IMG/VR virus record: IMGVR_UViG_2703718828_000006
Length of the DNA: 12,133 bases
Source of the DNA: a virus
Taxonomy: Duplodnaviria; Heunggongvirae; Uroviricota; Caudoviricetes
Reading direction: 5' to 3' (one strand)
The notes under the pieces are model-generated. The model saw only the letters and a program-made list of their open reading frames with translations. It did not search any database and was not told where the DNA came from. Both the position numbers and the translations under genes were made by a program. Position 1 is the stretch's first letter; each line of letters begins with the position of its first letter. This document shows positions 8,827-9,114 of the stretch, piece after piece.

Positions 8827-8907
8827 AGGTGTGGCCCACTATAGATTCTAGGTGTGGCCCACGTCAATGCTTTTCTTTGTTCTTTTCTCGTGTATACTGT
8901 GGCCCAC
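8827..8907. promoter_or_regulatory. Divergent promoter region with three operator-like repeats (A/G)GGTGTGGCCCAC
   Basis: Repeats at 8827..8839, 8850..8862 and 8897..8907, spaced about 23 and 45 bp. Leftward promoter: -35 TTGACG (complement of 8862..8867) and -10 TATAGT (complement of 8838..8843), 18-bp spacer, overlapped by repeats 1 and 2. Rightward -10 TATACT (8893..8898) overlapped by repeat 3. Confidence 0.55.
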
Positions 8908-8928
8908 CAAACATACGGAGATTCAGTA

Positions 8929-9114
8929 ATGGCTACCGGTACAAAGAATGCTAAATCACAAGCCTTAAAGGCACGAGTGCCACATGACGTAGTTGAAGCA
9001 ATGGAAATGGTGAAAGAAGAGGACGAAAGTACGTCACAATTCATCATTACATCCATGCAAAGTGAGATTAAACGCCGCCAGCGCAGGAAAGTTAAGCCAG
9101 AGCAAGGAAGCTGA
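8929..9114 (+). CDS. Small ribbon-helix-helix-like (Arc/CopG-type) DNA-binding protein, 61 aa; candidate repressor
   Basis: ATG at 8929 with GGAG 8 nt upstream. MATGTKNAKSQALKARVPHDVVEAMEMVKEEDE... fits the beta-strand plus two helices pattern of ribbon-helix-helix regulators. Transcribed divergently from the primase operon across the operator repeats. Confidence 0.5.
   Translation: MATGTKNAKSQALKARVPHDVVEAMEMVKEEDESTSQFIITSMQSEIKRRQRRKVKPEQGS

Follow-up and report, generated by a model that had tools for sequence, protein, structure and literature searches.

The stretch of DNA analysed here (the window, 12,133 bp from the viral record IMGVR_UViG_2703718828_000006) is a P4-like satellite, in which genes for an integrase, Psu, Delta, an AlpA-like protein and a primase lie together beside a tRNA gene (11931-12012, minus strand). 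Near-identical copies occupy the same site in Escherichia coli chromosomes, where the tRNA gene is annotated as tRNA-Leu. Our analysis, which is computational and comparative throughout, centres on the region between two divergent transcription units of this element. Rightwards runs ylcI (8929-9114, plus strand), an open reading frame (ORF) of 61 residues with a GGAG ribosome site at 8917-8920, whose product is called 'YlcI/YnfO family protein' by RefSeq in the near-identical copies. Leftwards runs an operon whose first translated gene is a 58-residue Icd-like ORF (8562-8738, minus strand; NF033153, E = 5.5e-24), the 'host cell division inhibitor Icd-like protein' of RefSeq in the same copies. 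It shares 8 nt with the start of the next ORF, and the rest of the operon comprises three small ORFs and the primase (4845-8569, minus strand).

Between the two units, the plus strand carries exact copies of TGTGGCCCAC at 8830-8839, 8853-8862 and 8898-8907, whose successive starts are 23 and 45 bp apart; the window has no further exact copy. In 1000 dinucleotide-preserving shuffles of the window, no 10-mer ever appeared in three exact, non-overlapping copies within 100 bp. The repeat core GTGGCCCAC is a perfect 9-bp palindrome, and comparison with relatives shows what appears to be a functional operator frame of 11 bp, GTG-N5-CAC. In this frame the boxes are O1 (GTGTGGCCCAC, 8829-8839), O2 (GTGTGGCCCAC, 8852-8862) and O3 (CTGTGGCCCAC, 8897-8907), the last of which has an off-consensus first base and reads cTG-N5-CAC.

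All three boxes sit on promoter elements. The leftward promoter P_left (8838-8867, minus strand) is sigma-70-like and reaches 10/12 in a consensus scan, with a -35 TTGACG (8867-8862), an 18-bp spacer and a -10 TATAGT (8843-8838). O2 lies in its spacer and abuts the -35, O1 overlaps the last two bases of the -10 and the expected start, and the positions of both hexamers next to O2 and O1 are conserved in relatives. From this position P_left would drive the Icd-like gene and the primase operon. For ylcI, a -10 box TATACT (8893-8898, plus strand) was read by eye 31 bp before the ATG, and O3 overlaps its last two bases together with the expected ylcI start. The relatives carry TATACT, TATAGT, CATACT or TATTCT directly before O3, often with TGn ahead.

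The initial annotation had described three near-palindromic repeats of 10-11 bp that overlap a leftward and a rightward promoter. The triplet and both overlaps are borne out, while the unit has to be redrawn as the 11-bp box, which is often asymmetric and in relatives sometimes inverted. The accompanying worry, that the repeats could be part of a neighbouring coding sequence, does not hold either, as the boxes are intergenic in the window and in every related locus examined.

Exchange and covariation of boxes and YlcI

The most direct view of how these parts belong together comes from a natural exchange. E. coli ET734 (locus L016) harbors this element, likewise inserted at the same site. Its primase shares 99.9% identity with that of the window, AlpA and Delta 100%, the Psu-like protein 99.6%, the integrase 99.0% and the Icd-like protein 98.3%. 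For YlcI the identity falls to 59%, and GTGAATCGCAC stands at each of the three boxes, with AATCG in place of TGGCC as inner bases. Alignment with this locus and a further one (L017) delimits a specificity cassette at approximately 8806-9062 that comprises the three operators and ylcI codons 1 to about 45. The exchanged block starts just past the hairpin region described in the next section and includes the N-terminal strand and both helices of YlcI, while the C-terminal tail and the rest are conserved. Exchanged as one block, the unit shows what looks like the behavior of an immunity cassette. The primase (with the repeats as iterons), AlpA, Delta, the integrase and the Icd-like protein were considered as binders of the boxes and rejected, since they are near-identical in L016 though the boxes differ.

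Is this exchange an isolated case? Related loci were gathered by exact-protein look-ups of diverged homologs, from diverged E. coli copies and by a hairpin pattern scan of viral contigs. The look-ups and the pattern scan were more productive than a contig search with the single YlcI of the window, which returned only three loci. A phage collection contained no YlcI homolog detectable by tblastn, and blastn found a single hairpin match there, in a 16.5-kb induced element. In every collected locus a YlcI homolog is divergent from an operon that begins with an Icd-like gene. Measured from the ylcI ATG, all relatives have their O1 equivalent at -96 to -114, with inner bases particular to each class. 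The O2 equivalent is at -77 in most and at -78 to -80 in a small number of loci; next to it comes GTCAA or TTCAA, a leftward -35 in reverse complement. The O3 equivalent is mostly at -32, with a small number of loci at -31 to -35.

The outer GTG and CAC are common to these boxes. The inner five bases are TGGCC in the window and elsewhere GACTC, TTAAA, CCATA, AAATA, AATCG, TCTTA, AACAC, CTAAC, TCGGA and others. The N-terminal strand of YlcI reads QALKARV in the window and elsewhere QKLQTRA, QTIAARV, QSLNARV, QMTTVRI, QQLNARF and others. A systematic set of 50 distinct loci falls into 23 strand classes, and about 24 classes are seen overall, each with its own box. The O3 core is common to 64 of the 73 pairs of loci with the same strand and to 38 of the 1152 pairs with different strands, statistics that common descent within classes inflates. 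The inner bases of different classes agree with an identity of 0.28, like random sequence, while O2 and O3 within a locus agree with 0.70. The operator boxes thus track the recognition strand. In several classes O1 is the reverse complement of O2 and O3, so the box would be read as an oriented unit. When 26 class representatives are compared, YlcI varies most at positions 12 and 14 (10 and 8 residue types), and N7, S10 and R16 never change. Such an alternation is what would be expected of a DNA-reading strand, and it sets variable residues against variable bases and invariant residues against invariant ones. Because the boxes change with this strand, and in L016 switch with YlcI alone, we infer that YlcI is the protein that binds them.

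What kind of protein is YlcI? It belongs to a small family (87 clusters at 50% identity), and its residues 9-50 match the NCBIfam model NF041551 (YlcI_YnfO_N) at 65.3 bits (cut-off 30; E = 3.6e-18). The Pfam family DUF3950 (PF13132) gave no match to the window protein at E <= 10, nor did anything meaningful emerge from the Pfam search as a whole; a distant protein found in the same gene slot (L061 type) passes DUF3950 with 36.9 bits against 25. The PDB yielded no match by phmmer sequence or profile search. An AlphaFold2 model built from 34 homologs has a mean predicted local distance difference test (pLDDT) score of 81.5, with 93-95 in the core, and contains an extended segment (residues 12-18), two helices (19-28 and 35-55) and a basic C-terminal tail. 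This predicted strand-helix-helix topology can be superposed on solved ribbon-helix-helix (RHH) domains. In RHH proteins the strand forms only in the dimer, so an extended segment in a monomer model fits the topology of an RHH monomer.

Sequence comparisons point in the same direction at low significance. No membership at threshold was found in the curated RHH families (RHH_1, Arc, CopG and others), and a Foldseek search with the model was uninformative. Below threshold, 10 of the 34 family members match PF18064, the RHH domain of pCXC100 ParB (best E = 2.7e-4), and two of the 34 match PF07704. A profile comparison with Arc by hhalign is weak (E = 0.022) and places R16-V17-P18 on Arc R13-W14-P15. 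Distant proteins in the ylcI slot match both YlcI_YnfO_N and RHH_1, Arc, HicB or RHH_4. Taken together, YlcI is predicted to be an RHH repressor with its recognition strand at about residues 12-17, in keeping with the earlier impression of an RHH-like protein. Our literature search found no functional study of YlcI/YnfO and no description of an RHH repressor in Gram-negative satellites.

The candidate antisense RNA and P4-type RNA immunity

P4 itself is silenced by an RNA, and the initial annotation, which stated this correctly, had proposed a protein-based immunity for the window as an architectural difference. In an Rfam scan neither the C4/CI RNA (RF01695) nor isrK nor c4-a1b1 (RF03163) matched the window at E <= 1. 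The same scan applied to P4 as a positive control recovered C4 with 74.9 bits, as well as c4-a1b1 and an isrK-like leader at 8653-8705 and 8615-8692, and the P4 ORF after the C4 RNA is likewise Icd-like (E = 1.6e-21). None of the three RNAs reached the gathering score in 20 related loci (122 kb). The difference from P4 thus holds. The label of a protein-based immunity is kept in part: C4 is absent and a candidate repressor with its operators is present, but the control is probably not purely protein-based, as a separate antisense RNA candidate adjoins the boxes. A further Rfam family, the int-alpA RNA (RF02996), scores 58-60 bits in two related satellites (L048 5260-5328 and L051 2492-2558, both minus strand) and has no match in the window at E <= 1.

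The candidate is a cis-antisense RNA of about 80 nt (8732-8812, plus strand), just left of the operators. It lies outside the region of 8827-9114 to which the initial annotation referred and is the best-conserved stretch of the whole control region. It would form two stem-loops, SL1 (8734-8765) with an anti-Shine-Dalgarno in or beside its loop, and SL2 (8768-8802) followed by a U-rich tail. In the Icd-like gene, its complementarity covers the leader, the ribosome site and the AUG. A fold, covariation and a covariance model (R1) support it. Folding of 8728-8814 on the plus strand gives the two stem-loops at -33.2 kcal/mol with z = -3.83, compared with -1.41 for the leader on the minus strand. 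An alignment of 58 distinct sequences yields a consensus of SL1 and SL2 with double changes at 7 of 22 pairs, and all five covariation measures lie above each of 500 shuffles. The partners pair in 99.5% of the alignment cells, a value that drops to 30-51% when they are slid against each other. G.U pairs make up 17.7% of the paired cells on the plus strand; read as a minus-strand RNA, where G.U would become C.A, only 82.0% of the cells pair, and 75.2% in SL1.

A candidate promoter for this RNA (TTGATC, 16 bp, TACACT; 8698-8725, plus strand) lies inside the first Icd-like codons, below the scan threshold. In the relatives a TAnnnT hexamer is found 50-54 nt upstream of the hairpin in all 59 distinct loci, in many as an extended TGnTATGAT. 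The Icd-like start codon meanwhile varies between -34 and -41, since the Icd-like domain begins at residue 6 to 20 depending on the locus. R1 scores 81.1 bits in the window and finds nothing in P4. It also scores 58.9 bits in locus L015, which was part of neither the training set nor the hairpin-pattern collection and where three compensatory double changes and a U7 tail are found in SL2. In six further loci tested, the target gene is Icd-like in five (one of them below the curated cut-off), as it is in P4.

These data could be read differently. The hairpin region might be a structured 5' leader of the leftward mRNA, determining its stability or serving as the target of a trans-acting factor, or else a DNA-level element. 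It does lie within the transcribed P_left leader, the antisense promoter of the window matches only 8 of 12 consensus positions, and some classes have a poor U-tail behind SL2 (fewer than four T in nine in 13 of the 58 sequences). Yet the pairing and the fold score both favor the plus strand, the -10-like hexamer keeps its distance from the hairpin in spite of the shifting coding frame, and the hairpin of L015 combines compensatory changes with a U-tail. We therefore regard a leader or DNA element as unlikely, and a putatively expressed antisense RNA as probably forming a second layer of regulation.

The candidate is also a probable new RNA family. No Rfam family matches it. SymR (RF01809) gives 24.9 bits against a gathering score of 61 (E = 0.39) and does not include it. 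At least 791 of 5426 complete E. coli genomes contain the motif, none of the 30 records listed annotates it as an RNA, and we found no antisense RNA described for Icd-like genes in the literature. One related locus (L044, 1178-1266, plus strand) contains a second, weaker R1 match (37 bits, E = 2e-7) about 4.3 kb from its main copy.

Several loci depart from the common layout. L015 at first seemed to have a ylcI without a divergent module. This was rejected when the covariance model found a full module 600 bp upstream on the other strand, with boxes GTGTTACCCAC and a ylcI ORF missed by the gene caller, which had placed a spurious opposite-strand ORF there instead. L015 thus has two ylcI paralogs (2207-2376, minus strand, and 3001-3168, plus strand), one being the canonical divergent copy and the other (P0060) lying inside the controlled operon upstream of a Mor-like gene. 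In long YlcI variants of about 104 residues (L014 3001-3315; P0044, P0056, P0059) an EI.RRQ-type helix recurs in a C-terminal extension, and the operators (GTGGTGAACAC and CTGTCGTACAC) have a less regular form, the first box being degenerate. In two Yersinia loci (L010 and L013, 2400-3200) the module of ylcI, operator, antisense RNA and Icd-like gene stands beside a tRNA gene and a short integrase, and its operon lacks a primase. That of L010 neighbors TraI_2, CbtA and ArdC-like genes and looks to be part of a different kind of mobile element.

In seven loci (L021, L030, L044, L051, L061, L067 and L073) other small proteins of 57-63 residues occupy the slot beside the hairpin. Their intergenic regions of 72-78 nt hold palindromes of their own, such as GGTAATTACC, TGGTACGTACCA and GTGTCAGACAC, and the proteins weakly match YlcI_YnfO_N or DUF3950 in addition to classical RHH models, thereby linking the families. 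Distant YlcI/DUF3950 relatives with their own palindromes in the same slot suggest that the repressor slot is exchangeable beside a constant RNA element.

A distant member of the family is the ylcI of the DLP12 prophage in E. coli K-12 (L081 4252-4446, minus strand), which is divergent from nohD (terS) across the cos region. In place of a GTG-N5-CAC triplet, the region upstream of it (L081 4447-4834) has just a 13-bp inverted repeat (4516-4548). This ylcI may play another role than its satellite counterparts, and the operator model should accordingly not be extended untried to lambdoid members.

Proposed regulation and its alternatives

Bringing these observations together, we consider it likely that the replication and Icd operon of this P4-like satellite stands under a self-contained cassette composed of the RHH repressor YlcI, its three boxes and, probably, an antisense RNA layer. 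YlcI dimers would insert their N-terminal strands into the GTG-N5-CAC boxes, where residues 12 and 14 would read the variable inner bases and R16 the outer GTG and CAC. Bound at O2 in the spacer and at O1 over the -10 edge and start, YlcI would exclude RNA polymerase from P_left and so silence the Icd-like gene, the three small ORFs and the primase. Bound at O3, over the -10 edge and start of its own promoter, it would exert negative autoregulation. A constitutive RNA from the opposite strand would meanwhile pair with the leader, Shine-Dalgarno and AUG of the Icd-like gene and block its translation, an effect expected to be polar on the downstream genes because the ORFs overlap. It would take the place of the C4/CI RNA of P1 and P4, though built differently. 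Repression, autoregulation and immunity are proposed here from position and covariation, and the stoichiometry of the dimer and the direction of regulation are likewise presumed.

Some observations weigh against this scheme. The -35 of the ylcI promoter is poor and the promoter scan did not call it, the structural model is that of a monomer only, and the covariation counts profit from common descent as mentioned above. On the RNA side, the weak promoter and uneven U-tails add to the fact that the SL2 stems were part of the pattern that collected most loci, so that unbiased support for SL2 comes from its basal pairs and from L015. Moreover, 'switch' and 'immunity' are extrapolated labels.

The same parts could also make up an addiction module, with an Icd-like toxin, an antitoxin-like RHH repressor and a type-I-like antisense RNA that together stabilize the island. 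The addiction and immunity readings are compatible with each other. As an explanation of the module, addiction control nevertheless appears improbable: ylcI is monocistronic and divergent, unlike the co-transcribed genes of type II toxin systems, the controlled operon includes replication genes in most loci, and some 24 specificity classes with cassette swapping fit a selection of the immunity type.

If YlcI does bind the boxes, it could still act as an activator or as a Cro-like regulator of the lytic phase rather than as a maintenance repressor. The weak -35 of P_right would suit this, as weak promoters often depend on activators, and some RHH proteins have dual roles. The arrangement of the boxes does not: O2 in the P_left spacer and O1 and O3 over a -10 edge and start imply occlusion and not the -40 to -60 placement typical of activators, and in classes whose O1 lies further downstream (-112) this box would be a roadblock. 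We hold such a role to be very improbable. Practically no weight is left for the repeats being origin iterons for the primase or initiator, or sites for AlpA, integrase, Delta or an Icd-like protein: P4 does have short repeats in its ori and crr (as annotated) that bind alpha, and those of the window lie just upstream of the replication operon, but in L016 these proteins are 98.3-100% identical while all three repeats differ and only YlcI changes along, and one operator class occurs with two unrelated primases (D5_N/DUF5906 and Toprim/DUF927) as well as without any primase.

With repression by YlcI as the preferred reading, the occurrence of so many strand and operator classes in elements that are otherwise alike suggests that heteroimmunity groups are set by the cassette and can be predicted among satellites. 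A broader reading is that a large group of enterobacterial satellites, including P4-like, PICI-like and capsid-forming types, has replaced the C4-type immunity with a portable two-layer cassette that joins a hypervariable YlcI and its operators, in at least 24 heteroimmunity classes that recombination exchanges, to a conserved, undescribed antisense RNA over the ribosome site of the Icd-like gene. This we put forward tentatively, as a proposition that may well prove right but falls a little short of an even call. If true, the coexistence of satellites, the helper signals to which they respond by induction and the timing of synthesis of the toxic Icd-like protein and the primase would all be determined by the two layers together.

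More than 30% of Enterobacterales genomes have been reported to contain P4-like satellites and related islands (PMC8628076). They bear anti-phage defence cargo, and silencing and induction are known only for P4 itself, where an RNA is responsible. A predicted RHH repressor and operator cassette from a family so far without an assigned function would be new for satellites that were regarded as RNA-immune. The YlcI/YnfO family, with namesake y-genes in E. coli K-12, gains a testable function as an operator-specific repressor. Its apparent specificity code matches strand residues 12 and 14 with the inner 5 bp and comes with about 24 natural pairs that could potentially supply orthogonal repressor/operator sets. 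The RNA candidate, in turn, would be an undescribed family that accompanies Icd-like genes, and P1, P4 and the present elements would each control the same gene by RNA in a different way.

The satellite and known control systems

The remaining genes of the window complete the picture of a P4-like element. Its Pfam matches are Phage_integrase, Psu, Ogr_Delta, Phage_AlpA and Zn_Ribbon_Prim/Toprim/DUF927; a sid or epsilon gene was not recognised among the window ORFs scanned. Behind the Icd-like ORF the leftward operon continues, all on the minus strand, with ORFs of 119 (8210-8569) and 94 residues (7894-8178), a DUF5375 ORF (7514-7897) and the Zn-ribbon/Toprim/DUF927 primase (4845-7517). The genes for the Psu-like (253 residues) and Ogr/Delta (90 residues) proteins follow co-directionally at 3411-4444. 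On the other side, the AlpA-like gene for a helix-turn-helix (HTH) protein (9211-9441, minus strand; PF05930, E = 1.4e-11) is convergent with ylcI. Between the two lies a hairpin with a U-run, probably a terminator (9178-9210, plus strand), which is conserved in L016 and L017; it is weakly evidenced, and the consensus scan did not report it. An ORF of 212 residues (9832-10470, minus strand) separates alpA from the integrase gene (10501-11763). It has no Pfam family, falls into phrog_30524 of unknown function, and with 88.7-91% identity in L016 and L017 is among the less conserved proteins between these elements.

Beyond delta lies a variable cargo region. A 558-residue ORF (1416-3092, minus strand) has no Pfam family and a weak PADLOC match to DitB (E = 1e-4). 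Since the near-identical element L001 has other genes at this position, the ORF may be an uncharacterised defence cargo gene. A 359-residue ORF (309-1388, plus strand) matches Pfam Phage_portal (E = 7e-18) in a satellite otherwise without structural genes, and a RefSeq 'phage portal protein' is present at the equivalent place in L001 and L016.

How does this organization compare with known systems? The closest are the CI RNA of P4 and the immI region of P1 (C4 RNA, icd, ant). They share with the window an early leftward operon in which an Icd-like ORF comes first and replication genes follow, and in P4 and P1 an RNA controls the 5' end of the Icd-like gene, as the candidate would have it here. 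P4 is also the same type of element, a satellite with psu, delta, a primase, an AlpA/Vis-like gene and an integrase at a tRNA. The differences lie in the construction. The window leader measures only about 93 nt and the candidate RNA is cis-encoded on the opposite strand, whereas the P4 RNA is processed from the same transcript; the window has a divergent gene for a putative protein repressor and three operators, which P4 lacks; and P4 has sid-delta-psu in divergent orientation, while in the window psu and then delta point in the same direction as the primase operon.

The RHH repressors (P22 Arc and Mnt, CopG, omega, MetJ and the RHH antitoxins) resemble YlcI in their strand-helix-helix fold and their short repeated boxes on core promoters. 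The layout likewise suggests autoregulation, and the R-x-P motif at the end of the Arc strand aligns with that of YlcI. YlcI differs from them in its own GTG-N5-CAC triplet, spaced at about two and four helical turns, and in its long basic C-terminal tail. SymR/symE and type I systems offer a parallel for the RNA, with an RNA of about 80 nt that runs opposite the start codon and ribosome site of a small gene which may be toxic. The window candidate has two stem-loops, a terminator-like 3' hairpin and a weak SymR similarity with the same end points, which is a likeness of layout only, and unlike symE its target heads a long replication operon.

Among satellites, the stl/str region of the Staphylococcus aureus pathogenicity islands (SaPIs) has its repressor gene transcribed towards the integrase side and divergently from the satellite replication operon, as in the window, and both Stl and YlcI are highly diverse among otherwise related islands. 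Stl proteins are HTH proteins unrelated to YlcI. Their derepression by helper-phage proteins has been demonstrated, which sets them apart from the window system. Gram-negative phage-inducible chromosomal islands (PICIs), by contrast, have been described as AlpA-activated and not as repressor-controlled. The lambdoid imm cassettes, finally, exchange the DNA-binding part of their repressor together with its operators as one block and have three operators at divergent promoters, just as observed here. Lambdoid CI is an HTH protein with Cro as its partner type, of which none was identified in the window system; in its place the window would combine a predicted RHH repressor of 61 residues with a candidate antisense RNA layer.

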